Source: a bacterium (GTDB lineage: Bacteria > Verrucomicrobiota > Verrucomicrobiia > Limisphaerales > UBA11358). Taken from it: a DNA stretch of 64,000 nucleotides. The notes under the pieces were generated by a model. It saw only the letters and a list, made by a program, of their open reading frames with translations. It was not told the DNA's origin and made no database searches. This document shows, piece after piece, positions 3,318-54,865 of the stretch (within the stretch, counting starts at the first letter, position 1; every line of letters starts with the position of its first letter). The stretch spans positions 9,524-73,523 of the forward strand of contig JAJXYT010000127.1 in the NCBI GenBank assembly GCA_021780375.1. Reading direction: 5' to 3'. A program made the position numbers and the translations under genes.

Positions 3318-4553
3318 TTACTGAGAGAACAAATTCAAATCAATCGCATCGGCCATGGCGTGATAGCCGGTCGGATTCAAATGCAGATGATCGCCGCTGT
3401 CGTAAGCCGACAGCAGATTGGTAAGCGTCACCGGGTCGCGCACGACAGCGTCGAAGTCTATCACCCCGTCATACAGGGTGTTGGTGCGAATCCAGGTATT
3501 GACTGTCTCCCGCGCAGCCTCATGCGCCGTGGTGTAATAACCGTTGCCGCCGAACGGGGTAATGGTCGCGCCATACACGAGGATGTTATGCGCATGAGCC
3601 CTGGTGGCAAACTGCTGGTAGGCGGTGATCAGGCTGGCGGCGCTCGTTCCGCCGCCGATATCGTTGACGCCGATGAACATAATCAGCCACCGCACGGCGC
3701 TCTGGTTGATGACATCGCGATCAAACCGATTTAACCCCGCCGGGCCGAGGCCGCCGTAAACGCCGCCGCCACCGATGCCCATATTGTCCACCGCTACCAA
3801 GGCCGTGAGGGCGTTGGTGTTCAGCCGCGCGGCCAGATCATCCGGCCAGCGGTCGTTGCCATCGGTGTCGGAACCGCGACCATCGGTAATCGAATCTCCG
3901 AAGGTAATGAGGGCATGACTGGAGTCATCGACCAACACGTCAACACCGGTAATAATGTACCAATGTTGGGTCGTCGAAGCTGATGGCAGGCTCGCCGTGC
4001 CGACGACGTTGCCGGACTGAATGTAAGAGGTGGTCCGAGACCCCGGATGCCCATTAATGGTTGTCGCCGAGATATTGCCGAAATAAATGGTGATGGCCAG
4101 ATTCGTCAGCGCCGGAAGGTTGTAATCCAGGGGATCGGAAAACAACGCTTCGCCGGGCGGGATGGTAATCGAAGGCGCGCCGTGAAACGTGAGTGCCTTG
4201 TCGGTGGCGGTGTTGATGACTCCGTTGGCCGCGCTGCCGGTCCCGGCGGCCAGCGCTACGTGAACTGAATTCAGGACCACCGGGTCGGTTCCATAAGCAT
4301 TGGAAAACCGAATGCGCAGATGAGTTCCGCCAATGGTCAAGTGCACGAACTGGCGGAGCGTGCTGTTGGCCAGGGGCACAGGAGGCAGGTTCCCCGGTTC
4401 GGTCAACTGCGGTCCGCAACCCCAGGTGGTTACCCAATGACCCTGACCGGCAATCAATTTTGCCGGAGCGCAACAAAGGGACAGTGCAAACAAAACGCCA
4501 ACCGTCCTGCACCGGGGAATTCGCGATAGCAACAGGTTGGTCCAGTTATTCAT
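3318..4553 (-). CDS. SGNH/GDSL-family hydrolase (carbohydrate esterase-like) with an N-terminal accessory domain
   Basis: SGNH blocks are present: FGDSITDGRGS (block I), GVNDIG (block III) and DHLHLNPTGY (block V). The signal peptide is MNNWTNLLLS...CCAPAKLIAG. Start is taken at 4553 (alternative 4565); the track start at 4652 would overlap the upstream gene. Confidence 0.8.
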   Translation of the reverse strand: MNNWTNLLLSRIPRCRTVGVLFALSLCCAPAKLIAGQGHWVTTWGCGPQLTEPGNLPPVPLANSTLRQFVHLTIGGTHLRIRFSNAYGTDPVVLNSVHVALAAGTGSAANGVINTATDKALTFHGAPSITIPPGEALFSDPLDYNLPALTNLAITIYFGNISATTINGHPGSRTTSYIQSGNVVGTASLPSASTTQHWYIITGVDVLVDDSSHALITFGDSITDGRGSDTDGNDRWPDDLAARLNTNALTALVAVDNMGIGGGGVYGGLGPAGLNRFDRDVINQSAVRWLIMFIGVNDIGGGTSAASLITAYQQFATRAHAHNILVYGATITPFGGNGYYTTAHEAARETVNTWIRTNTLYDGVIDFDAVVRDPVTLTNLLSAYDSGDHLHLNPTGYHAMADAIDLNLFSQ

Positions 4554-6624
4554 TTTGAGGTGCATAAGAACGATAAAACCGCACGGGATTGGTGGCGTTG
4601 GTTTCGGTGAATTGCCATGCGCCGGCGGCATTGGCTGCGTTGGTGGACACATTCTGCCAGGAGGCAGTGGAGGTTAATGTGCCGGCGGCTTGAATAATAT
4701 TCGTAGAGCCCGGGCCGCCGAGGAAATACATGGTTACGCTTCCATCCGGATTATGAACGATGTTGGTAATCAACGCCGGCGGATAAGGAATGGCCACGCC
4801 GAACACGGTTCCCTCTCCGCCGGGTCCGCCGCTGAACGTCGTGCCGTACAATGAATTTCCCAACGGCAACACTCCGGCCACCGGCAGCGCGCCATCCCGG
4901 TTGGTGCCGGTGATCGGATCCATCGCGGTAAAGGCGTGGATTATTTGGAATTGCGTGCCGTTGGTGCTCACGGAGAAAACCGTTCCACTGGCATTGGCGC
5001 CGCCGGCGGACGCCGTTCCGAAAAGATGACCACCCGAAAATGCCAGGGGCGCGCAGGGCGAAGCCCCGTCCGAGTTGGTTCCCGCCAACGGATCGGGTGC
5101 AGAAAAGTTGTAAAGCACCGTGAATCCAGTTCCACTGGCGCCGATGGAAAAAATGACACCATTGCCGCCTGTTCCGCCGGCCAGGGTGGTTCCATACAGC
5201 ACGCCGTCGGACAGAACCAGACCGCTGGCAGGGAACGCGCCGTCGGTATTGGTGGCCGTAACCGGATCCAGAGGCGTGAAGTTGTGAAGGACCGTGAAAT
5301 TGTTGTCGCTGGTGTTGACGGAAAACACAACCCCGTTGCCGCCCGAGCCGCCGGCGGAGGCGGTCCCATAAAGCAGGTTGCCGGAGGAAATCAAACCTCC
5401 GGTCGGCAGGGCGCCGTCGGTGTTGGTGCCGGTGTTCGAGTCCAGCTCATTGAAGTCATGCAGGACGGCAAAAGTGGAACCGTTGGTGGACAGGGAAAAC
5501 ACCGTGCCGTTGCCGGCCGCGCCGCCGGCGGTGGTCGTTCCATAAAGGGTGTTGCCGGACAACGCCAACAGCGCGTTGGGGCTGGCGCCGCCGGCATTGG
5601 TGGCTTCGTCTGCGGAGACGGCGGCAAAACTCCGAAGGACGGAAATGCCGCCGTTGGTGTTTCCCAGAAAGATCGAACCCACCCCGTTGTTTCCGCCACC
5701 CAGACTGGTTCCGAAAAAGCCGTTGCCTGAAAGCGCCAGGTTGCCCTCCGGGTTGCCGCCGTCGGGAGCATTGGCAAAAGAATGGAAGGCATTAAAGTTT
5801 GTGCCATCCAGGCTCACATAAAAAGCCGTGCCACCTCCCTGCACGCCGCCGTCGAAGGTGGTTCCCATCAAAACGCCGCCGGAGTACGCGAGGCCGAAGG
5901 CAGGATTCGCGCCATCCAGGTTGAGACCATTGCTGACCGAACTGAACCGATGAATCGCGATGCCATCCGGCCCAAAGAAAGTGTTCGTGTTTGGATTGGT
6001 GGGCGCGGGAAGCGTTGCGGTGTCCAGGTTCGACACCGTGAAAGCGGTTCCCAGCGTGCCAAAGGCAAATTTGTCCAGGTCCAAACCGTTTTCGCGCGCG
6101 CCGATTTGAAAGGTTTGGACTAAACTGCCTGCGCTGACCGTGAAACTGACATTGCCGGCGAACTCCGAAAGGTTGATCCATTTCCAAACCAGGTCACCCG
6201 CGGTGCCCGCGCCGTTGACCACATCACTCGGGGCGGTGTAACCGACGCCGGCCAGTCCGTTCACGAAAATCCAATCCGAATTATTCGCAGGGTTTTTCGC
6301 CCCGAACCCGTTGCCATAAAACAAGCTATCATCGTTATACCCGCCCGGACCCACCAGAACACGCGCGTAAAGCTGATAGGTTCCGGCCGATGGAAATGTG
6401 ACCGTGTAAGTCGCCACCCGCGCGGCGCTGATGGGATTATATCCCGCGTCGTCGGTCAAAATGGTGATATAGGTTGGCGCGCTGTTGCTGACGGCCCAGT
6501 CCGAGCCGAGCGCGCCGGATTCCGCCTCAAAAGTAACGATGTCGTCCGCTCGGGAGAGAATCGAGCCGGCCGACAGGATAGCCGTCGCAGCAATGAAGAT
6601 CATTGAAGATCGGCGCAGTTTCAT
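4546..6624 (-). CDS. Secreted protein: CBM-like N-terminal domain, Gloeo_Verruco (GloVer) tandem repeats and a C-terminal FYR-ending domain
   Basis: Tandem ~50-aa repeats of the form GG..G.GTVF......G..F..LH.F match the TIGR03803-type GloVer repeat from memory. The signal peptide MKLRRSSMIFIAATAILSAGSILSRA fixes the start at 6624. The N-terminal ~160 aa are paralogous to residues ~473-633 of the GH43/GH30 protein. Confidence 0.8.
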   Translation of the reverse strand: MKLRRSSMIFIAATAILSAGSILSRADDIVTFEAESGALGSDWAVSNSAPTYITILTDDAGYNPISAARVATYTVTFPSAGTYQLYARVLVGPGGYNDDSLFYGNGFGAKNPANNSDWIFVNGLAGVGYTAPSDVVNGAGTAGDLVWKWINLSEFAGNVSFTVSAGSLVQTFQIGARENGLDLDKFAFGTLGTAFTVSNLDTATLPAPTNPNTNTFFGPDGIAIHRFSSVSNGLNLDGANPAFGLAYSGGVLMGTTFDGGVQGGGTAFYVSLDGTNFNAFHSFANAPDGGNPEGNLALSGNGFFGTSLGGGNNGVGSIFLGNTNGGISVLRSFAAVSADEATNAGGASPNALLALSGNTLYGTTTAGGAAGNGTVFSLSTNGSTFAVLHDFNELDSNTGTNTDGALPTGGLISSGNLLYGTASAGGSGGNGVVFSVNTSDNNFTVLHNFTPLDPVTATNTDGAFPASGLVLSDGVLYGTTLAGGTGGNGVIFSIGASGTGFTVLYNFSAPDPLAGTNSDGASPCAPLAFSGGHLFGTASAGGANASGTVFSVSTNGTQFQIIHAFTAMDPITGTNRDGALPVAGVLPLGNSLYGTTFSGGPGGEGTVFGVAIPYPPALITNIVHNPDGSVTMYFLGGPGSTNIIQAAGTLTSTASWQNVSTNAANAAGAWQFTETNATNPVRFYRSYAPQNE

Positions 6625-6798
6625 TTGTATGATTCTTTGCATTAACCGGCACAGAAAATTCAATCCGCGGAGCGTCAAAACCGACACAACACAACCAACC
6701 GATGGATAATCGTTCAACTTTTCAGGCAAGTAACCGCACCAAGAGGACTCAAAATGCACGACCTGCCTTTTTCCAAAAAAAGCCTTGCGATATATTCT

Positions 6799-7653
6799 TC
6801 AATTGCTCCACGTAGACTTTTGGGCGGACAAAGCTTTCAATTGTAACGAGGTAATGGGCACAGGTGCAGACTGCAGATCATCCAATCTCTGCCACCAAAA
6901 CCAGTCACGTTCGTGGACACCTTGGTAGGTGTGAAAGGCATACATGTCGGCAAAGTTAATCCATTTTGCTGAACCGTCGGCAAACACTTCGTTTCCGCCG
7001 GCAGGAATGTGTCCGCTGTCCGTGTGCGGCGGAATGTTATCCCAATACGGTTGTCCCTCGGTTGTGTCAGTCATCTGTCCCCAGTACGCGCCTGGGCCGG
7101 GGCCGCCTCTTACGTTCGCATCGGCAGCCAAACACCAATAAGGTTTCGAGGTGCCCAATTTGATTGGGCTGTGCCCGGTCACATTCTTGTTGTAGAGGGG
7201 AATATGCCAATTGGTCATGCACCCGAAATATTCATATCCGATGACCCATTGGGCTGCATTCGCCCCGTTTGCCGGAGTAAAGGTCGGAAGACGTCCAATG
7301 GTGCCGATCCGACTTGGACAAGTCCACACCGACGGTTTGTAATTGAGGCCCAATCCCACCGATTTTACGCCGTTGGACGCCCCTACCTCCAAAGCATTGG
7401 GCACATAAACTCCGCCTGTGTTTTTACAGGGAATCACAAGGTCGTGATTGTCTCCGGCATAAGCTGTCATACCGAGGGCGATTTGCCTCATGTTACTGGC
7501 GCAGGCAACGCGTCTGGCCCTTTCTTTCGCGCTCGCCAGAGCCGGAAGCAACATGGCAGCCAGGATGGCGATGATAGCGATAACAACCAATAGTTCAATC
7601 AAGGTAAATGCGCTCGTCTTTTCTTTGATTACTTTGTTTCGAGCTTTCATCAT
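6799..7653 (-). CDS. Prepilin-type N-terminal cleavage/methylation domain protein (DUF1559-like pseudopilin)
   Basis: The N-terminus [24 protein letters not shown] is a class III signal. The C-terminal [18 protein letters not shown] is an H-X9-DG-like motif typical of PVC pseudopilin-like proteins. Confidence 0.85.
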
Positions 7654-7674
7654 ATATCAAATTACACTTTGATC

Positions 7675-7709
7675 GCAGGAGCAACAGGCCCAATGCCTGC
7701 CACTCCTGC
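7675..7709 (-). terminator. GC-rich intercistronic hairpin (possible terminator or attenuator)
   Basis: GCAGGAGcaacaggcccaatgcctgccaCTCCTGC lies between the stop of the 1626-aa gene (7733) and the pseudopilin start (7653). No clear U-run follows it. Confidence 0.3.
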
Positions 7710-7732
7710 TTGATTCCACTTTTTTCAAACTG

Positions 7733-10700
7733 TCACTGCCGCAGGCGGTAAAATACCGCCCCATTGGTGCTGGTAATCGTCATGACACTCTGGGTCGAAG
7801 AGCTGCTGCCGGCCACATCAACCCAGTTGGTCCAAAGCCCCCTGGCCAGCGTGTTGGTTTGGGCCTGCAAGGTATAACCCAGGTAGGCCGACGGCCATGA
7901 TAGCGTCAATTGGTTTCCCGAAACCGACAAGCTGATGGGCGGATTCGACGGAGCCGCCGCCACCACGGTGGCAATCCCGGTGGCCGGATTAAAGTTCCAA
8001 GCCAGGCCGGCGCCCGGCGAACCGCTGAGGGTGGCAAAATTGCCGCTATAGTGTGCGTTGTTGAACAGCTTGAATGAGGCTCCATTCGTCAACGGCGCTA
8101 TCCCGCTGTTGGCAAGCTGCAGTGTGCCCGCATAACTGTTGGTTCCGACGACATTGATCAGGTCATTGGACACGCCGTTATCCAGGCTCACATCCATGGC
8201 CACAGTGCTGCCGAACGACAGGGCCAGGTTATTGCTGAAGGTCATGTATTGGACATTGCCGCCGCCGCCGGGACTGATGGTGGCACCGTTGTTCGCAACC
8301 ACATTGCCTTTGACATACGAACCGTTGTCGCCGCGCAGCGTCTGTCCACTGCCGAGGGTCAAGGTGCCATCCGTGCGACCACTGGCGTCCAAAGCGCCCG
8401 GGAACGCCTGGTTCGTGGTGATGCCCTGCAACGTAATGTTGAGTGAATTGTTGATGGAACCATTGCCCACCAGGCGCAAGACCGAGCCGGGACCGCTGCC
8501 ACAATCGACCACAATCGTGTCGCCGCTGTAAGTGTTGGCGGCTGCGAAGGTGACGTAACTTTGATATTGCACGGTCACGCCGCCCGCACCGGTAAGGACA
8601 TTGCTGAAAATCATCCCGTGGTAGAAGTTCGCATTCAAATTCACATTGCCGCCGATCAGCGTCACGGGACTGTTGAACACGTTGGTCGTGATGTTATATC
8701 CGTAGAGGGTCGAGTTGTTGCTGCACATCAGCGGCCGGACGCAGGCTGCGGCCGGGGTTCCCCAGGCGAATCCGGCGCCACTGCCGACCAGGATATTCTT
8801 GGTGGGATCACCCAGGCCCAGCGCCGATGAGGACTCGTAGCTGAAGATGCCTCCCAGGATGTCAATGGGGCCAAAGTTCGTGCTGACGGTTGCGACATAA
8901 CGCAGGCGGAATTGTCCGGTGCCTAATTTGGTCAAAGTGTAGGCGCTGCTCTGCGAATTCATTTGCGGCGTGCCGCCGTGACGAATGTTGATGTCACCGA
9001 CACCGCCAACGGTGGCATCGCCGGTCAGCGTCACATAACCGGGATCGGCGTTGTCATTGTTATTGGTGGAGCTGTTGACCAGCGCCCCATTGCCGCCGAC
9101 ACCGGAGCCGCTTAAGAGAACGTTGTAACCTGGCGGGCCATATTGTTGATAGTTCGGCACTTCCACGCCATTGATGTCCAATGTGCCGCCGTTGGCGACC
9201 GTCACATTGCCGAGGTTATTGTTCAATGCACCGCCACCATAAGGATAGCCATAGTTTTGGTCCGCCAGTTTTATGGTGCCGCCATTGATGTAGGTGCCGC
9301 CGATGAACGTGTTGTTCGTGCAGGCGATAGTCAGCGTGCCGGAACCATTCTTGACCAGGGTCCCGCTTCCGGTGATACCTGCTCCCACCGAGTTGGTCCA
9401 ATAATAGTTGTTTGTCGAGTTGACCGTAACGCCGCCGGGTTGGACTATTTGCGCAACAATCACGTTGTAACTGGTGGCGGTGTCGCCAAACACAACCGTC
9501 TGTCCGTCAGCATACGTCGTTGCCGAGGAGGAAGCCGGATCGTACCAGTTTTGCGTGCCGATGTCCCAAGCCGTTGAATTGGCTCCAGTCCACTGGATGC
9601 CGGCAGCCGTTACGTTCAGGTCAATCGTGTGATTGCCGGTGTTATTGACCAGGGTGGCGGTGACACCCGCAGGCAATGTTCCCAACTGAAGGCCGCCAAA
9701 GCCGCTTCCGCCAATGGTTCCGTCATATTTAATCAAGGGGAACTGGCCAATGGAATAACCGGCGCGCGGCGGGAGAATCACGCCGGCATTGATCGTCAGG
9801 TTTGTGGCATAAATTACCGGACTGGACGGCATGAAAGCCAGACGGGTAAAACCGATATTACCCGCGTAACCCAGGAGCGGGTCGTTTCCGATATGCAGCG
9901 TAAGGCTCGTCATGGAAAGCGTCGAATGGCCCGGGGCGACCGCGACATCCAAGGTGCCGGCGTCAGAAACGTCGTAACTGCCGCCGCCCTGGCTGGCGGT
10001 GGAGGTATAGAGCCAGATCAGGTTGGTAACGATCGTGGGACCGCCGTAGGTGTTGATTCCATTCAGGTAAACCACATTCCCGCCGTAAACCTCCGGGCTC
10101 GCACTGCCCAGCGCAATGAGGTCGCCGCCGATCGCCGTGATCCCTCCCGCCCCGCTGATATTTCCGTTCAACGTAATCTTCCCGAAGGAATCCTGGTTGT
10201 TGAATTGATTGGACGCAACGTACGAGACATTGGAGAAGGTCAGCGTGCTGTTGAGCGTGACGGGGCCGTTGTAGATGTCGGCATCAGGATGATTATACGG
10301 CGTGCGGTAATTGATGATCATGCCCGAACCGCCCACAATGATCGGATTATAAAAGGTCAGGCCTTGGTAGCCATTCAGCGGATTCCAGGTGTCAATAAAT
10401 CCGCCATTGGTCAAAGTAATGGTGGCCGTGGAGCCGGCCGCATCCGCATGGTCCCAGAACAGCACGCCGCCACCGGAAATCACCAGGCCGCCCAAGGGAC
10501 TTGCCGCTGCATGTTTCAAGTAGAGATAATTGGTCCCGATTTTTGTCAAAGTATGTCCATTCCCCACAATGCCCGAGCCCGTGTTACCAATTTGCCAGTT
10601 TGCGCTGGCGCTGATAGTCGCGTCGCCGGTCAAGGCAACGGTGCCGATGCCGGTGTCTCCGCCCCCGGAGGTCAAACCGCCACCAACGTTGTCAATGGCG

Positions 10701-12613
10701 CCGAGGGTTGGACTGGATCCAGTGCCGCTGATTTGAACGGCGCTCGTATAAGTGGCGTCCAAAGCGGCGCCGTTCAGCTCCAGGGTGCCGGTGCCGGAAA
10801 CCGTGGCCAGCGCGCCCGCCGGAGACCCCAAGGAGTGTAATACCAGGTTGGTGCCGGTCGAGTCGTAGCCGATCGCTAAAACGCCGTTACTGATGACGGT
10901 TCCACCCGAATAGGTGTTGGTGGTGGACAATGTTACTGTTCCGGCGCCGCCCTTGTTCAATGCCGTGGCCCCGGCGATCGTGCCTGACCCTGTCAAAGTG
11001 TAATTGCCGGAGGCATTAAAATTCACTTCAGCCGGATTAACGGTCACATTCAGCACCGGTTGGACGCCTGCGCCCAGGTCGGTGAAATTGTTCGTGTCAC
11101 CATCAAAAGAAACGTCGCTGCCGGCGCCGTTCAACCAGTTGGCAGTCGTATTAATGTCCCAAAGATTATTGACGCCGCCTTGCCAGACGAGATTTGCCGC
11201 CGAACCGCTGCTGGTCACCACCAATTGCACCTGCTTGCCCACATACTGCACGCTGTAAGACAAACTCCGGGTCTGCAGCGCGGCCACGTTGAAATTGGCC
11301 GGCGAGCCGCCCAACGTCCCGGTAACTGCGATCAAAATATACGTTCCCGGAGTCGGCGGGTTGTTGAGTTGGATACTGGTTACGCCGCTGGGTGAAAGGT
11401 TCCCGTCCACCATAATCATGTCGTTGGTTCCGCTCGAAAAGTCGCAGGACAACGTTGCGCCACCGCTCAAGGTCAGCGCACTCATCGCCAGATTCGCTGC
11501 GGCGCCTGCTCCACCCGGGCTGATCTTGCTGCCCGCGCCGGCCGTGACCGTTCCGGTTACCGTGCCGTTTCCCGCCAAAGTCTGGCCGCTGGCCAGGTTG
11601 AATCCTGCCGCCGAAGCGTCAAACGTTGCCGCGCTGCCCACCGTCACCGTATTGGAGCCAGCCAGCGCATTGGCGGCGCCTAAAATCAATGTGCCGCCAT
11701 TGGCCACCAGATTTCCGGTAAAGTTTGAAGCGTTTAAGGCGGAACCGAGTTGCACCAGGGTGCCGGCATTGGTCAAAGTCAAGGTGCCCCGCCCGCTCAG
11801 AGGCTCCGCGTTTGTCAGGATGATTCCCGAGGCGATGTCAAACCAACCCCCATTAGGCCCAATCGTTATGCCGCTGTTGGCATTGTTCAGACTAAAGCTG
11901 GCGGAAGGCCGCAAACCGCCATTGTCCAAAGTCAACTGGGCCGGATTAAAACTGGATGGATTGCCGCCCAGGTTGGCCTGGGAACCTACCTGAATGATTG
12001 TATTATTTATGGCAATTTGCGGACCGGTAAAAGCGGTGTTGTTTCCGGTATGAATAACCACGCCTTGCGCCGCCTGATGGAGCTGATTACTCCAAAACGG
12101 ATCTCCAGTGTAATTAGTCAATATCCCCGCACCAAACATGGTCGTCCCATTGGTGAGGGAGCGGTTGTCAGTGGAACTCGAATTTCCCGATCCCGTGTCC
12201 ATGGCGCCGCCGTTGGTGGGGACATACATGTTGCCAAGCACCGTGAAGGCCCCACCCTGGGCATTAACGACTCGCCCCATATTGGTCAAAGTGTTAACCG
12301 TCATCACGAGCGGATTGAGCTTTTGATAGAGCGCGCCACCAGGAGCAATCGTCAGTGAATCACCGGCAAAGGTTATGAAATTGGTTCCCGAGTTCGGACT
12401 TCTGATAATGTAAGGCCCGCTGAAGTAGTTATTGCCACTGGTCGGGGCTGCCCCTGAGTTCCAATGGCCTGCGGTGTTGAAAGAATGCTCTCCAAAGCCG
12501 TCGCTTGCGGTCATGGTCACGTCGGCAGCCATTGAGCTCATTGTCAGCGCCATTACGGTGAAAATAACGGCCGCGATTTTCTTTAGTACTCCGTCAAGGG
12601 TTTTGTGGTTCAT
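7733..12613 (-). CDS. Giant secreted autotransporter-associated beta-strand-repeat protein (adhesin-like), no beta-barrel domain
   Basis: 1626-aa ORF with a signal peptide (AAVIFTVMALTMSSMAADV). It has dozens of G/T/N-rich ~30-aa repeats with GTLTL.NAGT, G.G.L.K.G.GTLTL and N.Y.G.T.I..G.L signatures. The last ~70 aa form the FYR-ending domain (...AVFYRLRQ). Confidence 0.85.
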   Translation of the reverse strand: MNHKTLDGVLKKIAAVIFTVMALTMSSMAADVTMTASDGFGEHSFNTAGHWNSGAAPTSGNNYFSGPYIIRSPNSGTNFITFAGDSLTIAPGGALYQKLNPLVMTVNTLTNMGRVVNAQGGAFTVLGNMYVPTNGGAMDTGSGNSSSTDNRSLTNGTTMFGAGILTNYTGDPFWSNQLHQAAQGVVIHTGNNTAFTGPQIAINNTIIQVGSQANLGGNPSSFNPAQLTLDNGGLRPSASFSLNNANSGITIGPNGGWFDIASGIILTNAEPLSGRGTLTLTNAGTLVQLGSALNASNFTGNLVANGGTLILGAANALAGSNTVTVGSAATFDASAAGFNLASGQTLAGNGTVTGTVTAGAGSKISPGGAGAAANLAMSALTLSGGATLSCDFSSGTNDMIMVDGNLSPSGVTSIQLNNPPTPGTYILIAVTGTLGGSPANFNVAALQTRSLSYSVQYVGKQVQLVVTSSGSAANLVWQGGVNNLWDINTTANWLNGAGSDVSFDGDTNNFTDLGAGVQPVLNVTVNPAEVNFNASGNYTLTGSGTIAGATALNKGGAGTVTLSTTNTYSGGTVISNGVLAIGYDSTGTNLVLHSLGSPAGALATVSGTGTLELNGAALDATYTSAVQISGTGSSPTLGAIDNVGGGLTSGGGDTGIGTVALTGDATISASANWQIGNTGSGIVGNGHTLTKIGTNYLYLKHAAASPLGGLVISGGGVLFWDHADAAGSTATITLTNGGFIDTWNPLNGYQGLTFYNPIIVGGSGMIINYRTPYNHPDADIYNGPVTLNSTLTFSNVSYVASNQFNNQDSFGKITLNGNISGAGGITAIGGDLIALGSASPEVYGGNVVYLNGINTYGGPTIVTNLIWLYTSTASQGGGSYDVSDAGTLDVAVAPGHSTLSMTSLTLHIGNDPLLGYAGNIGFTRLAFMPSSPVIYATNLTINAGVILPPRAGYSIGQFPLIKYDGTIGGSGFGGLQLGTLPAGVTATLVNNTGNHTIDLNVTAAGIQWTGANSTAWDIGTQNWYDPASSSATTYADGQTVVFGDTATSYNVIVAQIVQPGGVTVNSTNNYYWTNSVGAGITGSGTLVKNGSGTLTIACTNNTFIGGTYINGGTIKLADQNYGYPYGGGALNNNLGNVTVANGGTLDINGVEVPNYQQYGPPGYNVLLSGSGVGGNGALVNSSTNNNDNADPGYVTLTGDATVGGVGDINIRHGGTPQMNSQSSAYTLTKLGTGQFRLRYVATVSTNFGPIDILGGIFSYESSSALGLGDPTKNILVGSGAGFAWGTPAAACVRPLMCSNNSTLYGYNITTNVFNSPVTLIGGNVNLNANFYHGMIFSNVLTGAGGVTVQYQSYVTFAAANTYSGDTIVVDCGSGPGSVLRLVGNGSINNSLNITLQGITTNQAFPGALDASGRTDGTLTLGSGQTLRGDNGSYVKGNVVANNGATISPGGGGNVQYMTFSNNLALSFGSTVAMDVSLDNGVSNDLINVVGTNSYAGTLQLANSGIAPLTNGASFKLFNNAHYSGNFATLSGSPGAGLAWNFNPATGIATVVAAAPSNPPISLSVSGNQLTLSWPSAYLGYTLQAQTNTLARGLWTNWVDVAGSSSSTQSVMTITSTNGAVFYRLRQ

Positions 12614-12725
12614 AACAACTTACGTGTATGGTGGTTGACGTTGACTGTCTCAACTAAAACACTCTTTCTACAATTAGGGACTGTTTGATCGTGAGAAGTT
12701 TATCTGGAAATCGGTCTCCGAAGCC

Positions 12726-12743
12726 ATACGACATATGTCGTAT
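12726..12743. promoter_or_regulatory. Operator-like palindrome ATACGAC-N4-GTCGTAT (copy 2, perfect)
   Basis: ATACGACatatGTCGTAT lies 113 nt upstream of the start of the 1626-aa gene. Confidence 0.45.
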
Positions 12744-12752
12744 TTTGATTTT

Positions 12753-15700
12753 TCAAGGCCCGATCTGAATCCTGTAAAAGCGCGCCGACTCATTTCGATT
12801 TGTGACGGTCAAGATAAACGGGGTCGAAGGCGAATTAGCCGTCTGCAACGATTGCCAATCCAACAGATTCGTTGAAGTCATAACCGTATAGTCAGGCCCG
12901 CTCGGACCGGTGATTGTCAAATTGAATGATGTCCCCGCATAGGGAACGAGGGAACTGATTGACGGCAGGCTGCTCAAGGGATTTACCGTTACGGCGAAAC
13001 TGTTCGTCGCGCTTAAACCCGGCGAGCCGTTGTCGGCCACCGCGACGGTGAATGAGTTTGTTGAGTCCGCCTGGCCGACGAGCGGACGCCAGGTAATCAG
13101 CGCGTTGGTTGAATTGAGCGTGACGAATGCGGCGTTGGTCGGCGCGGCCAGCAAAGCAAATGTCAGCGTTTGCGTCGGCAAATCCGGGTCGCCCGCAAAA
13201 TTGGTCACGAGCAGGGTCACACCGGCGTTGATGGTTGAATTCGCAACCGCCGCGAGCGTCGGCGGAGAATTTGGCGGAGAATTTGTTTGGCCGACAAATG
13301 TCACGACGCTTAAACCGGGCAGCGTGTAACTGAAGGTCGCGTTGGTCACGGCGACGTTGGCTTGAACGGCCAGCGAAACGTCCGGCGAAGTCATCCACGG
13401 CGTGAGCGCTCCGATGGGCGGGAAATCCTGGAGATTAAAGGTTGGCGTGAGCGCAATGCTGGTCGGGTTGATGGCGACGATGGTAAGCGCGGCGGAATTC
13501 GTGTTGCGATACGCCGTGACGAGCACCGCGCCGTTGAGGTTGGTCGCGCCAATGCGATGGTAGCCCGGGCGCACGAAGCGGCTGAATTGGGCCAGGACAA
13601 AGCCGCGCTTTTGCGGAATGCCGTGGCTGCTGAGGAGGCCGTTGATGTCCCCGATGCATTTCCACCAGAGATAGGCGCTCATGTTACCGGTCGCGAGGCA
13701 ATCGTGAATTTGCTGCGCGCTCTGGATTGCGGTGTTTATCGTCTGGTCGTTGATCAAATATTCCGTCATCCAGGTCGGGAGGCCTCGGTTGTGCGCGTTG
13801 GGGTAATCGGCAATCGTCCCGCCGTAAAGATGCCCTCCAACCAAGCCCACGTTCGTCACGGCCACTGGATCATTGAGGGTCGGGTCGGACAGCGTTGGGT
13901 CGAAGTGGAAGGATTCGGGCATCATGACCGGCGCGTTGGTAATGGCCGCGGCGTTGTTATGAAAGAAGGTTTGGAACTGCGTGGCTGTCCAGAGGCAGGA
14001 CTCGTAAGTGGCCAGGAAATCCGGCTCATTTTGAACTGAAACCGCGGCCAGGGGAGCGCGGTTGGACTTCATGTAGCCGGCGAAGGTATTCAGATAATTA
14101 GCGTAATTGGCATACTGGTTGGTCGCAAGTGACCCACCGACGGTATTGCTGTTGGTTTTCATGTTCGCGGGCGGAGTCCAGGGGGTGGCCAGAACCCCCG
14201 CCCCGCGCGCGACGGCTTGCTGGGCGTCGGAAAGACTGGTGGACCAGGCTGAAACATTGTTGGTCCAACTGTTGTTCGGCGCGATGCGCACCCGCAGTAA
14301 CGTCAGTCCGAGTTGATTCGCGTTGTTCGTGTTGAACAGCGTGTCCATGTTCGTGCCGGCGACGGGGTCGAGGCCGGAATCCAAAAACACTACGCCCGCG
14401 CCGAAGCCGTCAATGCGCTGGAGCACGTTTGTCCAGGTGATGGTGCAAGTTCCGGCGGCTGGCGGTGTGCCGTCCGTGCCGTTGTCGAGATCGGAAACGG
14501 TGTAAGTGAAACCGCTCAACCCGAAAACGAACGCGTCAAGGTCGAGACCGGTTTCGCGCCCGCCGATTTGAAACGTCTGAGTCAAATTTGTGCCGGGGAC
14601 AATGAAGGTCACGCCGGGTGTGACGAGTGAAAGGTCAATCCATTTCCAGACATTGGTCCCGGCAGTGCCACCGCCGGTGACGTTGTCGGTAGCATCGGTG
14701 AAACCGGTGTTGGCCAGGCCGTTGATTAAAATCCAACCGGAACTGTTCGTTGGATTTTTTATTCCGAAACCATTTCCATAAAACAGGCTGTCGTCGTTAA
14801 ATGCGCCGGCGCCGACTCGAACGTGTCCAAACAGATGGTACGTACCGGACGTGGGAAACGTGATGGTGTAGGTCGCTACGCGCATTGAATTGCTGGGAAT
14901 ATTTCCTGTGTCATCGGTCGTGATGGTGATATAAGCGGGCGCGGTGCTGTTGCTGACGGCCCAATTCGAACCAAGCGCGCCGGATTCGGCTTCGAACTTC
15001 ACCAGCGAAGCCGGAGATTGCGAATTTGTCGCAGATTGAAATTGCCAGGAATTGAAATTGAAAAGATTTGTCGGAGTGGCGCCGGTAAATTTCAGGTAAA
15101 GGTCGTGAACACCTTTCGCGCTGGCATACGTCACTCCGCATGACGCATTTGCCCAGGTCTGCCAACCACCCGTTGCCGGCACAGGACAGGTGCCAATCAA
15201 AGTTCCGGCGAGGCTGTCGAGATGCAGTTCGATATTTCCACCGGGACCGGCGCTGGCAATTCGCGCGGTGAAATTCGTCGCGCCCGCACTGGTGAAATCC
15301 ACGCCGCGCAGCATGATCCAATTGCCGTTCAAAATGTTTGTCACGTCCATCCCGCCTTCGCGGCACGGCCCGGTGTCAATGCCGCTGTCCTGCGCTATGG
15401 TTTCGGCTTCCACGCGGTGATAGGGATTCACATATTTCAATTGAGCGAGCCCGTTCGAGGTGCAGACGACCGTTGGCATGGTCCCATCGGCGTTGTAAAC
15501 GGCGCTGTCCAGACAGACGTTTCGTTTATAAGTCGTCGGTATTCCATTCAGCGCGGCAAGATACCGATTTTGATACACGACATATTCCGCGCTTTGAAAA
15601 GTGATAAATGCCGCGTGATTGTTGTTTCCATTGTTGGGAGCCTGCAACACGTTCCCGAGGTAAGTGAAACCCGACGTCGGACTGGTATTGGTCCCGTATT

Positions 15701-16418
15701 TTATCCATTCTCCCTGCGAACCACCTGTCTCATACGAAAAATAACAGGTCCCGTTGTGCTTGTGCATGTCAGAGGCTTCCAGAAAATACGGGACGGTTCC
15801 CCAGTTGGTCACCAGACCGAGGCTGACCATGTCGGAATTCAGCAAGGCCACCCGCGCATTATTCGAGTTGTTGCCTCCAAAATACAAATAAGCCTGGTTG
15901 CTTTCCATGAACACGCATGGATCGAAATACCATTGATTGGTGCCGGACGCGCCCGGCGTGCTGGAATTGATCAAGGCGCTTCCCCGGGCGTCCACAAAAG
16001 GACCCGTCGGGCTGGCATTGGTCGCAACGCCAATGCCACCGCCGGCATTGTTCCCGAAATACATGTAGAACAGACCGTTCCGGTAAATCACCGATGGCGC
16101 CCAGGAATAACTCGCCCACGAAGCATCGTCCGGCACGTTAAGAACCACGCCATGGTCGGTCCAGTTTTTCAGGTCGTCGGTCGAAATGCAGACAATCGAA
16201 TGCATCGCATAACCGCCGTTTGTCGAGTTGTCGTCGTCGTTTGAACAATAAACGTAAAGCTGGCCGTTGTACTCCAGCCCGTCCGGGTCGGCCAGATATC
16301 GGTGCCAGACCAATGGATAATCAGCAAAACCGACGGATGACATGCCAAGAATTACCAAGACGACTGGAGGAAAAAACAGGACACCCCTGCGACGATCATG
16401 AGGCTGCATGGTTGACAA
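12753..16418 (-). CDS. Multidomain glycoside hydrolase: GH43, CBM6, unassigned CBM-like domain, GH30, cadherin/Ig-like domain and FYR-ending C-terminal domain
   Basis: The GH43 five-bladed propeller is supported by YLADPDGLEYNGQLYVY and SWAPSVIYRNGLFYMYF. The CBM6-like block runs VEAE...GNWIML...GWQTW...NFNSWQF. GH30 is supported by ATPWTPPANMK, VSVQNEPDF and PTWMTEY. The Ig-like block runs PPTLAAV...FTVAVADNGSPGLS, and the protein ends in ARFYRIQIGP. Confidence 0.85.
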   Translation of the reverse strand: MSTMQPHDRRRGVLFFPPVVLVILGMSSVGFADYPLVWHRYLADPDGLEYNGQLYVYCSNDDDNSTNGGYAMHSIVCISTDDLKNWTDHGVVLNVPDDASWASYSWAPSVIYRNGLFYMYFGNNAGGGIGVATNASPTGPFVDARGSALINSSTPGASGTNQWYFDPCVFMESNQAYLYFGGNNSNNARVALLNSDMVSLGLVTNWGTVPYFLEASDMHKHNGTCYFSYETGGSQGEWIKYGTNTSPTSGFTYLGNVLQAPNNGNNNHAAFITFQSAEYVVYQNRYLAALNGIPTTYKRNVCLDSAVYNADGTMPTVVCTSNGLAQLKYVNPYHRVEAETIAQDSGIDTGPCREGGMDVTNILNGNWIMLRGVDFTSAGATNFTARIASAGPGGNIELHLDSLAGTLIGTCPVPATGGWQTWANASCGVTYASAKGVHDLYLKFTGATPTNLFNFNSWQFQSATNSQSPASLVKFEAESGALGSNWAVSNSTAPAYITITTDDTGNIPSNSMRVATYTITFPTSGTYHLFGHVRVGAGAFNDDSLFYGNGFGIKNPTNSSGWILINGLANTGFTDATDNVTGGGTAGTNVWKWIDLSLVTPGVTFIVPGTNLTQTFQIGGRETGLDLDAFVFGLSGFTYTVSDLDNGTDGTPPAAGTCTITWTNVLQRIDGFGAGVVFLDSGLDPVAGTNMDTLFNTNNANQLGLTLLRVRIAPNNSWTNNVSAWSTSLSDAQQAVARGAGVLATPWTPPANMKTNSNTVGGSLATNQYANYANYLNTFAGYMKSNRAPLAAVSVQNEPDFLATYESCLWTATQFQTFFHNNAAAITNAPVMMPESFHFDPTLSDPTLNDPVAVTNVGLVGGHLYGGTIADYPNAHNRGLPTWMTEYLINDQTINTAIQSAQQIHDCLATGNMSAYLWWKCIGDINGLLSSHGIPQKRGFVLAQFSRFVRPGYHRIGATNLNGAVLVTAYRNTNSAALTIVAINPTSIALTPTFNLQDFPPIGALTPWMTSPDVSLAVQANVAVTNATFSYTLPGLSVVTFVGQTNSPPNSPPTLAAVANSTINAGVTLLVTNFAGDPDLPTQTLTFALLAAPTNAAFVTLNSTNALITWRPLVGQADSTNSFTVAVADNGSPGLSATNSFAVTVNPLSSLPSISSLVPYAGTSFNLTITGPSGPDYTVMTSTNLLDWQSLQTANSPSTPFILTVTNRNESARFYRIQIGP

Positions 16419-20516: not shown

Positions 20517-20532
20517 AAAATCAAAATCCAAC

Positions 20533-20838
20533 TCAGCCCCGCCACGGGCTGTAAAACATTTCGTCCACGAGCACGGTGTTGATTGCGTCCACCGGTGTCG
20601 GCCGGGCAAACGGCTGGGCGGCCTCGCGGCCTTCCTCGTAACCAATGATTTGCCGCGCGTCTGCGCCCAGATCGTCGTAAACGACAAGGCTGGGGTCTTG
20701 GCCCATGCCCGCGGGCGCGTTGAGACCGGCGGCGAACTGCTCGCGGCTGAATGGACTGACGATCAAAAATCTCCCGCCTTTGAGCGAGTCCATGGCCTGG
20801 CTCAAAGTCACCCGGCCGATGACGGTTCCGAGTTTCAT
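20533..20838 (-). CDS. BMC-P pentameric vertex protein (EutN/CcmL family), paralog 3
   Basis: MKLGTVIGRVTLSQAMDSLKGGRFLIVSP...PVDAINTVLVDEM is consistent with the EutN fold. The ATGA start/stop overlap with the upstream BMC-P at 20835-20838 suggests translational coupling. Confidence 0.8.
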   Translation of the reverse strand: MKLGTVIGRVTLSQAMDSLKGGRFLIVSPFSREQFAAGLNAPAGMGQDPSLVVYDDLGADARQIIGYEEGREAAQPFARPTPVDAINTVLVDEMFYSPWRG

Positions 20839-21113: not shown

Positions 21114-21116
21114 AAA

Positions 21117-22631: not shown

Positions 22632-22638
22632 GATTCAA

Positions 22639-50045: not shown

Positions 50046-50103
50046 GCGGAAAGACTAATTGTTGGCCATTGAAAGAAAAAGCGAAATGAGGTAGGGCCTG
50101 GGC

Positions 50104-50852
50104 ATGGCCTCCCGCGCAAACATTCGGCCTTCACCCTGATTGAGCTTCTGACTGTCGTCGCCATCATCGGAATTCTGGCGGCGCTTTTGCTGGCGGTAAT
50201 TTCTCATGCAAAGGGAAGAGCACAAAGAGTTCAATGCGCGAACAACTTGCGTCAACAGGGTATAGCGGTGCATGTTTTCCTCGCAGATAACCATGGTTAT
50301 CCTATGGTTTATGCAAATAAAAATGACGGCTATCCCGACCACGATAGAAGCTGGATTGCCCAACTGGAACAAGTAGGATTTGGAATTTCTCAACCTAAAA
50401 CAAATTATTTTAAAAACGAAATTTGGCTGTGCCCTTCAGCTCAATGGACATCTAATGTTTTGGGGTCTCCGCCTTGTTGCTACGGCTACAACTGTGGCAG
50501 CGTTGATCAAAACGACTCTAATTATACCAATTGGCTTGGTCTTGGAGGTCGGTACAGCCGGACTTCGCACACTTTTATCCCAATCTCTGAATCAGAAGTG
50601 GTGGCGCCAAGTGATATGATGGCAATAGGAGATAGTTTTAATGGAACGATCATTCTGTCGCGTGTAGATGTGATCGAAAATGAGAAATACGGGAACATCC
50701 TTACCCGCCATCAAGGCCGCGCCAACGTGGTATTTTGTGACGGTCATGTCGAATCACCGACGCTGCAATTTCTTTTCCAAGACACCAGTGACGCCGCTTT
50801 GAGCCGCTGGAACCGCGACCATCAGCCGCACCGCGAAAAATTATCACCGTGA
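50104..50852 (+). pseudogene. Prepilin-type (DUF1559-like) gene with a 1-nt frameshift inside the signal sequence
   Basis: ATG 50104 gives [11 protein letters not shown] then a stop. The next frame continues from 50130 as [28 protein letters not shown]...[15 protein letters not shown]. That frame has no ATG, GTG or TTG start between its upstream stop (50070) and the FTLIELL motif. Confidence 0.6.
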
Positions 50853-52109: not shown

Positions 52110-52760
52110 ATGCCACGAACTCGGGCATTTACGCTTATCGAACTGCTGATGGTAATGGGGATTATTGCCATCCTGGCCGCGTTGTTGTTGTCCGTCATCG
52201 GCCACGCCAAAGCCTCGGCGCAGGCAGCCACCTGCCGGAATAATCTCAAACAATGGGGAACGGCCACGCACCTTTACGCGGCGGACCATGGCGATCGTCT
52301 GCCCAAAGATGGTTCTTTCGACGGAGGTTCCATAAAGGAAGGTTGGTATATTGATTTGCCCCGCACGTTGGGCCTGCCCACTTACCGGGAAATGCCGTGG
52401 CGCACCAACAAACACATCGAACCCGGTCGCTGTATTTGGATTTGTCCCTCGAATTCCCGCCGCAGCAACAGCAACGAGCTGTTTCATTATTGCCTCAACA
52501 AAAATGTGAACGGCACCGGCACCGGCAATCAAATCCGGCTCGTCTCCATTCCGCATCCTTCCGTTACGGTCTGGTTGTTTGACAACGGCGGGATTGCCGC
52601 AGTGGCGCAATGGAACAACGTTCACTCCAATTTACACAGTCACGGGGCACAGTTTACCCTCCTCGATGGCCACGCCACATGGTTCAAAAACACGGAATAT
52701 TGGAACTTCAAAACCAACAAAGGCCTTACCAATAATCCCAAGCTGGTCTGGTTTCCGTGA
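52110..52760 (+). CDS. Prepilin-type N-terminal cleavage/methylation domain protein (DUF1559-like pseudopilin)
   Basis: Supported by [27 protein letters not shown] and the C-terminal [17 protein letters not shown]. Confidence 0.85.
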
Positions 52761-52768: not shown

Positions 52769-54865
52769 TCACGGCGTGCGATAGACGCGGAAGAATCGGG
52801 GCGCATCCGATATATTGGTTTGAAAAGTGCAATCGGCCCCGGTGGCAATCAGGTTGCTGGCCAGCGGCGTCCACGTCATCAGATTCGACGAAACTTCGAG
52901 GCGATACGACCGGTTGCTCTGCGATTCCCAGGTCAATGAAACGATTTGATTCGTCCTCCCCAGGGACAGCAACCGGAATGGCCCGTTGAACGGATTGGCA
53001 AAGGCCATGAACACCGGCAGATGGTCGGAGGCGGTCCGGTCGTCGTTGCTATACAGGTTGGCGGGCGCCGGGTTCAGCAAATCCGTGCGGAAAACCTGGC
53101 CGCCGGTGATATTCGAGAACAACATTGCGCACGGCAGGATGTAATCGTAGCGCAACGTCGGCCCGGAATTGGTGTTCTGAATGGACCAGGTCACTTCGCG
53201 GCCGGTGAGCGGATTAAGCGGTGTCGTCAGATGCAAACCGGTTGGCGCACTGACCAGGCGCTGGAGAGATTGCGGTTGGCTTGCCGATGGCCAGAGAATG
53301 TCTTCGTTCATGTCGCCGCTCAATACACAGGGTTCATCGCCGTGGGCCGGCAGATAAACGGTGGCGAAAAAATTGGAAATGGCGCCTGCCTCCGCGGCTC
53401 GCTTTGCCGCCGACCCGGCGTCCTGGCCCGATTTTAAGTGGGCCACAAAAACGTGTAACGGCCGGGGAAAATCCGGCACGGAAATTTCCGCTTCAAACAA
53501 ATCCCGGGTAAAATAAGGGGCCGGTACGGGATTGGTGTAACCGAACAGCACGAGGTCAGCGCCATGCAGCCAACTGCGCGACGCAACGATGGGATACCGG
53601 CTGAGAATGACGCTGTGAATGGCACCGTCGTCCGCGGAATTGGTGACGAGGTAATAACCGGGGCGGAACGCCGTGACAAAATCCGCCATTTGGGCCGTGC
53701 AATTGTTGGTAACCGGGATTTCGTTGAAGGTGATGATGTCCGGGTTGAGGTATTGCATCTGGCGGCCGATGGCCTGCACGTGCCACAGGTTCGTGCTCCA
53801 ATTGGTCAGCCCATTGCCATGCACGTTGTACGTCAGATAAGAAAAAGCCGGCGGGGCGGCGCGCCAGACACTCAAGGCCGCTGCGTCGCTGATGGTTGAA
53901 CCAACGGCGTTGGTGACGGAAACTGTATAAAAGCCGGCTTGGGCAAAAGTCACTCCGGCCAGGGTGAGATTGGAATTGACCGCCCCAGGCAGGTTGGTTC
54001 CGTGAACCCCGTCAGCCGATGTCGGGGTGAACTGCCACTGATAGGCCAACGGCGGTGCGCCGGTGGCCGTTACGCTGAAAACAACATCGGCGCCGTTCGT
54101 AATGGTTTGAGGTTGCGGCCCGGAGACAATGGTGGGCGGCTCGGCAGCCGGCCCGCTGGCAACGACATCGGCAAAAGTGGTGCCGATTTTTAAATTATCC
54201 ACGCTCATCACGCCTTCCCCCGTGTTCTCGCGAAATGCATAGCCAACCACAGTAAAAGTTGAACCCCCTTCGCTGGTTGAAACACTGGTATCCGTTTCTG
54301 CGGTCGGATTGATCCAAAGGGTGCTGACCGAATTACTGTTCACCAGCCGGGTCACAACGATGTAATCCGTGTTGAGCCGCAAATCGATGGGATTGGTTAC
54401 ATTTATGATCGAGCTGCTGGTGGAAGAGATTCCCAGACGGAATCGGCCGGGCGCCGCGCCGCTCGTCAACGCCCAGACGCGCGCCCGAAAACCGTTGCCC
54501 GAATCTTTGAAATGGGTGAAATAGGTTCCACTGCCGCCCGGCAGCGTGGTGAATTTCACCTTGAAACCGGCATAAAATATATTCGTGGTGCCGGAAGCGG
54601 GATAGGGCTGGCCGGCCAGCAACGCGTGGACATCCTCGGTATTGGCTTCACTCAAAAAAACACGGTCCGAAGCCACCATGACCTCGCCGGTGACCGAACC
54701 GCTGTGGTGTGACCATAAATTGGCGCCAACCGTCACCAACGCACCGTCGGGATAATCGAAGGAATCGCTGAACAATACGGCCGCCTCCGCCGCGATGGCG
54801 AAAACCATGAATACGGCCAGTCCGCAGGCAGCTTGCTTCACGATGATTGCGGGACATGTTCCCAC
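52769..54865 (-). CDS. Secreted endonuclease/exonuclease/phosphatase (EEP)-family protein with N-terminal lectin-like domain, Ig-like domain and FYR-ending C-terminal domain
   Basis: GTG start with a signal peptide. The Ig I-set-like block is PPTIVSGPQPQTITNGADVVFSVTATGAPPLAYQWQF...AGFYTVSVTNAVGS. The EEP core runs FSYLTYNVHG...DIITFNEIP...ASDHLPV. The protein ends in APRFFRVYRTP. Confidence 0.8.
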   Translation of the reverse strand: MGTCPAIIVKQAACGLAVFMVFAIAAEAAVLFSDSFDYPDGALVTVGANLWSHHSGSVTGEVMVASDRVFLSEANTEDVHALLAGQPYPASGTTNIFYAGFKVKFTTLPGGSGTYFTHFKDSGNGFRARVWALTSGAAPGRFRLGISSTSSSIINVTNPIDLRLNTDYIVVTRLVNSNSVSTLWINPTAETDTSVSTSEGGSTFTVVGYAFRENTGEGVMSVDNLKIGTTFADVVASGPAAEPPTIVSGPQPQTITNGADVVFSVTATGAPPLAYQWQFTPTSADGVHGTNLPGAVNSNLTLAGVTFAQAGFYTVSVTNAVGSTISDAAALSVWRAAPPAFSYLTYNVHGNGLTNWSTNLWHVQAIGRQMQYLNPDIITFNEIPVTNNCTAQMADFVTAFRPGYYLVTNSADDGAIHSVILSRYPIVASRSWLHGADLVLFGYTNPVPAPYFTRDLFEAEISVPDFPRPLHVFVAHLKSGQDAGSAAKRAAEAGAISNFFATVYLPAHGDEPCVLSGDMNEDILWPSASQPQSLQRLVSAPTGLHLTTPLNPLTGREVTWSIQNTNSGPTLRYDYILPCAMLFSNITGGQVFRTDLLNPAPANLYSNDDRTASDHLPVFMAFANPFNGPFRLLSLGRTNQIVSLTWESQSNRSYRLEVSSNLMTWTPLASNLIATGADCTFQTNISDAPRFFRVYRTP

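Follow-up and report, generated by a model that had tools for sequence, protein, structure and literature searches.

Why should four apparently exported proteins of different make-up end in the same small domain? The question is raised by a stretch of 64,000 nucleotides from a bacterium of the Limisphaerales (Verrucomicrobiota; assembly GCA_021780375.1, contig JAJXYT010000127.1, positions 9,524 to 73,523), the whole of which is referred to here as the window. The domain, called the tail below, comprises about 70 C-terminal amino acids (aa) and closes with F-[YF]-R followed by two to eight further residues. Four minus-strand genes carry it (Table 1), encoding a GloVer-repeat protein, a protein composed of PATR repeats, an enzyme that joins GH43 and GH30 modules (the GH protein), and a protein with Ig and EEP domains (the EEP protein). 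The computational analysis reported here places the four tails in one family that is strictly terminal on diverse cargo and is predicted to adopt an FN3-like fold. Its architecture tentatively suggests, with a likelihood a little short of even, a non-covalent surface targeting or attachment module on exported proteins.

Pairwise, the tails of the window resemble one another weakly (E values between 5e-6 and 0.05 in BLAST). A non-circular test was provided by a hidden Markov model (HMM) built from 406 tails of other contigs, with no sequence of the window included, and searched against all 883 six-frame open reading frame (ORF) fragments of the window. This model matched exactly four C-termini, those of the PATR (E 1.3e-23), GH (E 1e-12), GloVer (E 1.6e-7) and EEP (E 9.2e-7) proteins, with the next best match at E 0.5, and thereby bore out the original prediction, made from the sequence of the window, that these four proteins share a terminal domain. 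Subtype models recover their own window tails at E 1e-38 (GloVer type, built from external sequences), E 2e-25 (GH type) and E 1e-43 (EEP type). Profile-profile comparison aligns the subtypes in register, at 95.6% for GH with EEP (E 1e-8), 94.7% for GH with GloVer (E 6e-8), 51% for EEP with GloVer and 57.6% for PATR with GH (E 1e-4), and by these links the PATR tail is the member that diverges most. The PATR-type model by itself detects none of the other three window tails; the joining of the PATR tail to them rests on the profile-profile alignment together with the pooled external model. AlphaFold models of the PATR and EEP tails show beta strands in the same order. The shared tail is thus confirmed as real, the family context having settled what weak pairwise similarity suggested, and the four ORFs with their tails were found at the positions given for them in the original prediction, all on the minus strand.

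The nature of the cargo was also correctly anticipated. The GloVer protein matches TIGR03803 (E 6e-65, seven repeats), PF12951/TIGR02601 (PATR repeats) are the sole Pfam or NCBIfam matches in the 1626-aa protein, the GH protein combines GH43, CBM6 and a XynC-like GH30, and the EEP domain is recognised by PF03372 (E 2.5e-10) when residues 335-625 (window 52991-53863, minus strand) are scanned in isolation. The same model was missed in a scan of the full 698-aa protein at E ≤ 0.1, an indication that full-length scans can mask real domains. What did not hold is the description of the four proteins as otherwise unrelated, since the GloVer and GH proteins have in common a second domain of 177 aa (63% identity, E 5e-62). 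This domain has no Pfam or NCBIfam match and is perhaps a carbohydrate-binding module that has yet to be named; a GloVer protein fused behind GH43 and CBM6 occurs in other genomes (P0209, 1141 aa). Each of the four N-termini resembles a Sec signal peptide, three being flagged by a crude rule and the fourth, which has a GTG start, recognised by eye. That of the GloVer protein, read from the ATG at 6622-6624, is MKLRRSSMIFIAAT... and is signal-peptide-like, and the gene call on a Logan contig (L160) yields an identical protein. Among 120 orthologues of the GloVer protein at 58-100% identity, 117 retain the tail, the full-length query used in that search returning close orthologues only.

If the tail is a family, what kind of domain is it? 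In Pfam (2025) and NCBIfam (June 2026) no model covers it, either in the four full proteins (E ≤ 0.1) or in 44 isolated tails (E ≤ 5), and the view that it is a distinct domain with no named equivalent has therefore been upheld. PF00041 (FN3) matches two of the 44 isolated tails, at best with E 0.026 and below the gathering threshold, and the one fn3 match of the GH protein falls upstream of its tail. Neither dockerin (PF00404) nor PPC (PF04151) is among the matches to the 44 tails, PPC having turned up a single time, in another part of one cargo protein. AlphaFold2 models of the PATR tail (predicted local distance difference test score 89, a beta-sandwich) and of the EEP tail (83, six strands) predict a six-stranded FN3-like sandwich, canonical FN3 having seven strands. 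A profile of the tail compared with the PDB gives a weak match to titin FN3 (E 7e-5) that spans the A, B and C strands (P-x-N-I-x..., L-T-L-S-W-P and the C-strand aromatic), and no solved relative is found by sequence below that value. With both models, Foldseek ranks FN3 domains and engineered scaffolds of the FN3 type highest, none of them below E 0.01. An FN3- or Ig-like fold had been guessed at the outset, and the models, the structural matches and the titin alignment all favour it.

Within the alignment of tails, W43 and F67 are invariant and L17 and R69 nearly so, and the polar surface sequences DHTGW and QTN/STNL are conserved. The F strand of FN3 carries the motif Y-x-F-R-V, which the closing F-Y-R-[LIV] of the tail resembles. 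As modelled, then, the tail appears to be an FN3 beta-sandwich with its conserved B-strand tryptophan and F-strand aromatic, one strand short; the G strand seems to be missing, and the tail probably ends at the F strand. It nevertheless differs from FN3 as defined by PF00041 in scoring below threshold, in being some 20 residues shorter and in its strictly C-terminal position, whereas typical bacterial FN3 domains are linkers. The family is absent from the libraries used, while its fold, like the idea of a C-terminal beta-sandwich tag as in the type IX secretion system (T9SS), is already known. Neither the domain nor the gene cassette discussed below was found described in a literature search whose coverage was incomplete and which is hence not proof of novelty.

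Whether the terminal position is a rule or a coincidence of four genes can be judged from the wider family. When 1.84 billion cluster representatives were searched exhaustively with HMMER, 12,873 matches were obtained at E ≤ 1e-3 and 3,248 at the stricter E ≤ 1e-10, the larger number being inflated in that the N-terminal half of the profile cross-matches ordinary FN3 repeat proteins, some of which possess genuine T9SS C-terminal domains (CTDs). Giant FN3-repeat proteins of 2,100-3,900 aa that end in a typical T9SS CTD (...GVYFVRM...LLLK; P0051, P0052, P0058, P0068 and P0106) ranked at the top solely through FN3 repeats matching that half, and were rejected as members. The family is large, with thousands of clusters at 50% identity. 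Its named sources are Verrucomicrobiota, mostly metagenome-assembled genomes of subdivision 3, Limisphaerales or Pedosphaera, and a single Hydrogenedentota protein beyond them, so that the earlier attribution to Planctomycetes-Verrucomicrobia-Chlamydiae (PVC) bacteria was too broad.

A core match is present in 143 top matches of the exhaustive search, and in 140 of these a copy ends no more than 6 aa from the C-terminus. The related loci (159 in all, L001-L159, totalling 1.9 Mb with 10 kb on either side of each seed) are consistent with this. Seventy-nine genome loci were seeded by the motif TLSWPxDH[TL]G, which lies near the start of the domain, in the predicted B strand and the loop that follows, and for this reason the seeds were not selected for terminal position; 107 of 107 copies in these loci, 28 of them unseeded, end 0-5 residues before the stop. 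The same is true of 101 of 101 copies in 80 metagenome loci seeded on GH-type tails. In total, the tail is the last domain, within five residues of the stop, in 208 of 208 copies, from loci that were fetched with subtype alignments (a mixed one being too diverse) and whose two sets are consequently each biased towards a subtype and its orthologues.

Tandem arrays of two to eight tails occur in about 10 of the 143 top matches (~7%), each copy ending in FYR and a Pro-rich linker and the last copy always being terminal. Proteins with three to eight tandem tails include P0053 (533 aa), P0057 (960 aa, GloVer repeats and eight tails), P0066 (511 aa, little beyond a signal peptide and six tails) and the Hydrogenedentota protein P0195 (371 aa, annotated as cohesin domain-containing). 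A terminal proline, present in 210 of 300 tails at a fixed spacing of 3-5 residues after FYR, was considered as a C-terminal recognition motif and rejected, as FYRLxxP is also found internally, between tandem copies. Frequent internal or cytoplasmic occurrence, or membership of a characterised family with a non-sorting role, had been named in the original prediction as fatal to it. None of these was encountered outright: the tail was terminal in every locus copy, and the arrays, which do contain internal copies, each retain a terminal one. The suggestion of a sorting or anchoring tag therefore agrees with the architecture, that is, with strict terminal position and diverse, signal-peptide-like cargo, but the arrays argue against a simple cleaved secretion signal.

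A sandwich of this kind could also be an ordinary FN3-like structural or carbohydrate-binding module, its terminal position an accident of the way multidomain exoenzymes are assembled. The FN3-like sequence and fold described above would be expected of such a module, as would the weak matches of the tail to CBM56- and CBM32-type modules, tandem repetition as in other Ig and FN3 domains, and the tendency of subtypes to travel with their cargo. This explanation is nonetheless unlikely. Invariable last position over more than ten unrelated cargo types is unusual for FN3 or carbohydrate-binding modules, the EEP, PATR and GloVer proteins are not carbohydrate-active enzymes, the conserved polar surface sequence is not what it would lead one to expect, and the GH protein of the window already possesses CBM6 and another putative binding domain.

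The range of cargo is broad. PATR beta-helix proteins account for 39 of the 61 top tail-bearing proteins, and the remainder of the cargo includes LamG, Ig/cadherin-like, SASA esterase with BNR, GxGYxYP, GH28, GH30 and BNR_4 proteins, as well as polysaccharide deacetylase, RGI lyase and GH79C enzymes. A given tail subtype is mostly found with a single cargo family; GloVer repeats are joined to at least three subtypes, from which it follows that the tail is a shuffled module. The crude signal-peptide rule flags 127 of 162 tail ORFs as against 237 of 492 background ORFs, a background rate of 48%. PATR repeats are autotransporter-passenger repeats, and no C-terminal autotransporter barrel (PF03797) was found after them by Pfam or NCBIfam in the 1626-aa protein, where the tail stands instead. 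NCBI names GloVer proteins "choice-of-anchor", a label for families with interchangeable C-terminal sorting signals. Both PATR and GloVer are thus cargo classes that ordinarily depend on a C-terminal element for export or anchoring, and they count in favour of an attachment module. The division of labour among the enzymes of these loci points the same way: tail-bearing enzymes are endo-acting or polymer-binding, while exo-acting ones lack the tail, as with the GH2 enzyme GalB of the window and GH78 rhamnosidases (10 members in 8 loci), a split that would fit an outermost location of the tail-bearing cargo.

Other C-terminal tags offer partial parallels. Like PEP-CTERM and LPXTG, the signals of exosortase and sortase, the tail sits at the C-terminus of diverse exported proteins, and GloVer-repeat proteins elsewhere are reported to bear PEP-CTERM, in the very slot that the tail occupies here. 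Unlike them, the tail has none of the architecture of signature motif, transmembrane helix and basic cluster, and no hydrophobic helix is found at the tail ends. The same lineages encode ordinary PEP-CTERM proteins (14 in 1.9 Mb, all small and separate from the tail proteins), and the tail is accordingly a parallel device rather than a replacement. A possible functional analogy is offered by dockerin, SLH and LysM anchors and the tips formed by PilY1 and minor pilins, which are likewise terminal modules of many enzymes, sometimes in tandem, and sometimes encoded beside a small envelope-anchored partner; one array protein carries the cohesin annotation mentioned above. Dockerin (EF-hand-like), SLH and LysM have no sequence or fold relation to the tail, and the analogy is one of architecture.

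Given the strict last position, the diverse Sec-dependent cargo, the replacement of the barrel after PATR repeats, the "choice-of-anchor" class and the arrays, attachment is the favoured role. The tail would be a compact, independently folding, six-stranded FN3-like sandwich of about 70 aa, its last strand bearing F-[YF]-R, that in Verrucomicrobiota, and mainly in Limisphaerales, may have been taken up as the last module of proteins that are exported by Sec and bind polymers or act on them, among them endo-acting glycanases, lyases, esterases, beta-helical adhesin-like PATR proteins, GloVer-repeat proteins and the EEP hydrolase. After export, it would remain uncleaved and bind a partner in the cell envelope, so that the cargo is directed to, or kept at, the cell surface. 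Tandem arrays, with their FYR ends and Pro-rich linkers, look more like modules for multivalent attachment than like a signal to be cleaved. In the PATR subclass, a co-encoded pseudopilin, or the fibre formed by it, would probably be the partner.

The evidence for such a partner lies in the neighbouring genes. The pseudopilin gene at 6799-7653 sits between the PATR and GloVer genes, so that three of the four tail genes adjoin a pseudopilin and not two as had been thought; that these neighbours are of the DUF1559 type was correct, both N_methyl and DUF1559 having been found. In the PATR-seeded loci, a same-strand adjacent prepilin-type gene accompanies 55 of 107 tail ORFs, compared with 85 of 540 other ORFs of at least 300 aa (16%). 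It lies downstream in 40 of the 55 and upstream in 15, at distances of tens to about 200 bp. All-against-all clustering identifies one pseudopilin family in 43 of the 79 loci as the most recurrent neighbour, and the cassette pseudopilin of the window shares 41-49% full-length identity with the pseudopilins of six of them (L052, L028, L060, L043, L015 and L036). L052 is syntenic with the window, having the order PATR-tail, pseudopilin, GloVer-tail, and a second tail-bearing gene often follows the pseudopilin elsewhere (L015, L036, L043, L061 and L005). GH-type tails, by comparison, show no enrichment (5 of 37 with a pseudopilin neighbour against 29 of 181 in the background), and the link proposed in the original prediction is for this reason a trait of the PATR-pseudopilin cassette and not of the tail in general. 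The other two pseudopilin genes of the window lie within 3 kb of each other and are distant from the cassette pseudopilin (27-40% identity over partial alignments).

It is conceivable, on these data, that the tail is a pilin-docking module which engages the globular part of the DUF1559/HX9DG pseudopilin, for example by edge-strand pairing through its exposed last strand, and so places its cargo, large adhesin-like proteins and enzymes, on a type IV-filament-like fibre, in the way that PilY1-type adhesins are carried by minor pilins. The recurrence of one pseudopilin family on the same strand, often between two tail genes, would accord with this, as would the membership of the window pseudopilin in that family, and a sandwich of six strands instead of seven might free an edge strand for the purpose. 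Docking of this kind, attractive as it is for the PATR class, is nevertheless rather improbable: only PATR-type cargo shows the association, which may be due to the PATR protein instead of its tail, the GH-type tails do not share it, and in loci so like glycan-utilisation clusters, with their histidine kinases, response regulators and GH78 enzymes, pseudopilins could be co-functional without docking. Less probable still is a more ambitious proposal in which the tail marks cargo for a hitherto undescribed surface-display or secretion route of Verrucomicrobiota, with the expanded, functionally orphan DUF1559/HX9DG pseudopilins as its receptors or carriers. In such a route, the cassette pseudopilin would capture the neighbouring tail-bearing adhesin or enzyme, perhaps through edge-strand pairing, and display it on a fibre resembling a type IV filament.

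The pseudopilins could also be read as components of an export machine, and the tail as an outer-membrane translocation signal, possibly cleaved, for a type II secretion system (T2SS)/pseudopilus apparatus, which abounds in these genomes, or for an unknown T9SS-like translocon, which would make it a functional analogue of the T9SS CTD. The type A CTD of Bacteroidota (TIGR04183/PF18962) is likewise a beta-sandwich of small size (about 70-80 aa) that stands strictly at the C-terminus of many enzymes and adhesins which are Sec-dependent and otherwise unrelated, and a genome encodes several copies of it. Among the Foldseek matches, one solved T9SS CTD (5hfs_A) is found at rank 8 (E 0.078, TM scores 0.49 and 0.53) and another (7pq4) at rank 45, with FN3 domains scoring equally well or better. 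The pseudopilin neighbours just described would also be in keeping with translocation. Differences, however, are several. PF18962 and TIGR04183 match neither the four full proteins (E ≤ 0.1) nor the 44 tails (E ≤ 5), and the six predicted strands, against seven in solved CTDs, the FN3-like motifs and the tandem arrays all set the tail apart. No candidate translocon or signal peptidase is recurrent in the 159 related loci, and no T9SS core component (PorK/L/M/N, Sov, PorU/V) is among the recurrent neighbours in the 64 kb window or the loci. T9SS is not known outside the Fibrobacteres-Chlorobi-Bacteroidetes (FCB) group, and the phylum of the window is not known to possess one. Arrays of up to eight copies, and a protein such as P0066 that is nearly all tail, are hard to square with a signal that is consumed, and GH-type tails are unlinked to pseudopilins. 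The arrays and the missing recurrent translocon or peptidase gene make a consumed signal of the T9SS CTD type less likely, and translocation as a whole is doubtful.

Attachment at the surface, although preferred, must itself be set against a number of considerations. The FN3/Ig fold is generic and the structural matches are weak, so that a role as a spacer or in carbohydrate binding is possible. No gene for dedicated machinery recurs in the loci besides the pseudopilin and two-component regulators, and the pseudopilin does not extend to the GH-type tails. The signal-peptide rule is crude and flags nearly half of the background, and the cargo could remain periplasmic. Further, the subtypes for the most part follow the cargo families and the seeds are not phylogenetically independent of one another, with the consequence that the counts given above overstate the independent support.

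Table 1. Positions in the window of the tail-bearing genes, their tails and the neighbouring features
Feature	Position	Strand	Remarks
GloVer-repeat protein gene	4546..6624	-	ORF to 6759; likely start ATG 6622-6624
GloVer tail	4549..4782	-	...STNIIQAAGTL...WQNVSTN...RFYRSYAPQNE; from translation and HMM
177-aa domain, GloVer protein	6013-6540	-	
PATR protein gene, 1626 aa	7733..12613	-	Signal peptide; without autotransporter barrel
PATR tail	7736..7951	-	...LTLSWPSAYLGYTLQAQTNTL...NWVDV...VFYRLRQ; from translation and HMM
GH43 + CBM6 + 177-aa domain + GH30 (XynC-like endoxylanase) + Ig-like + tail gene	12753..16409	-	ORF 12753-16418; likely start 16409
GH43/CBM6/GH30 tail	12756..12968	-	...GPDYTVMTSTNLLDWQSL...ARFYRIQIGP; from translation and HMM
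177-aa domain, GH43/GH30 enzyme	14475-15005	-	
Ig + EEP protein gene, 698 aa, exported	52769..54865	-	Lectin-like N-terminal region, Ig_3, EEP, tail
Ig + EEP tail	52772..52990	-	...VSLTWESQSNRSYRLEVSSNLMTW...PRFFRVYRTP; from translation and HMM
Cassette pseudopilin (prepilin N-terminus, DUF1559/HX9DG-like)	6799..7653	-	PF07963 + PF07596; GspG-like N-terminus
Second pseudopilin (DUF1559/HX9DG type)	52110..52760	+	N_methyl + DUF1559; convergent with EEP gene
Third pseudopilin paralogue, H-X9-DG C-terminal motif	50073..50852	+	Stop-to-stop frame; TIGR04294 E 2e-6; prepilin motif
GDSL esterase, tail-less	3318-4652	-	Start uncertain
GH2 beta-galactosidase GalB, tail-less	588-3299	-	
Microcompartment locus	~19449-28707	both	

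The surroundings of the cassette indicate the setting in which it may operate. In the window, the GH, PATR, pseudopilin, GloVer, GDSL esterase and GalB genes form a co-directional string, with a divergent ROK regulator. The longest ORF of the GDSL esterase shares about 100 nt with the 3' end of the GloVer gene, part of the tail included; on the identical Logan contig the esterase is called from a later start (415 aa), and the overlap is about 20 nt. That contig also continues the window locus (L160, 8635-9427) into a PA14 and HisKA_3 kinase. Across the 79 loci, the other recurrent neighbours are a LuxR-type response regulator (17 loci), histidine kinases of the Reg_prop/Y_Y_Y or HisKA_3 type, and glycosidases, examples of flanking regulators or kinases being L044 3585-4487, L071 301-3465 and L042 1617-4958. 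The cassette surroundings thus resemble a polysaccharide-utilisation locus (PUL) or regulated glycan-utilisation cluster.

GH-type tail genes have no consistent downstream partner. On several metagenome contigs, small PEP-CTERM-like proteins (240-330 aa) are encoded directly downstream of GH30-type tail genes (L091 4293-5285, L125 660-1379, L132 650-1492, L149 10368-11186, L150 8389-9207, L151 10368-11186 and L156 5086-5844). As a general partner of GH-type tails the PEP-CTERM gene was rejected, as it lies downstream in just 6 of 76 cases, and three of these come from near-identical contigs (L149-L151). These proteins could represent a second kind of envelope-anchored neighbour, too infrequent to constitute a rule. 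Elsewhere in the window, a microcompartment locus encodes a class II aldolase, EutN/CcmL, an aldehyde dehydrogenase, a BMC-H protein, acetate kinase, an RnfC/Nuo51-like protein and a tandem-BMC shell protein; it resembles the Planctomycetes/Verrucomicrobia type of bacterial microcompartment for the breakdown of fucose or rhamnose.

How Verrucomicrobiota and other PVC bacteria export large glycan-degrading enzymes and adhesin-like proteins and retain them at the surface, and why these bacteria encode so many orphan pseudopilins, are the two questions on which the tail bears. Were the pseudopilin-based route to prove true, it would constitute a pilus-based counterpart of the surface machinery of Bacteroidota PULs. 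The tail HMM, together with the cassette of tail, pseudopilin and second tail, provides a testable handle on both questions, allowing the prediction of cargo and supplying defined candidates for the partner. Even if the tail is a mere attachment or binding module, it merits a family model, which would improve the annotation of thousands of proteins from soil and peat metagenomes that are at present "hypothetical" or "autotransporter-associated".

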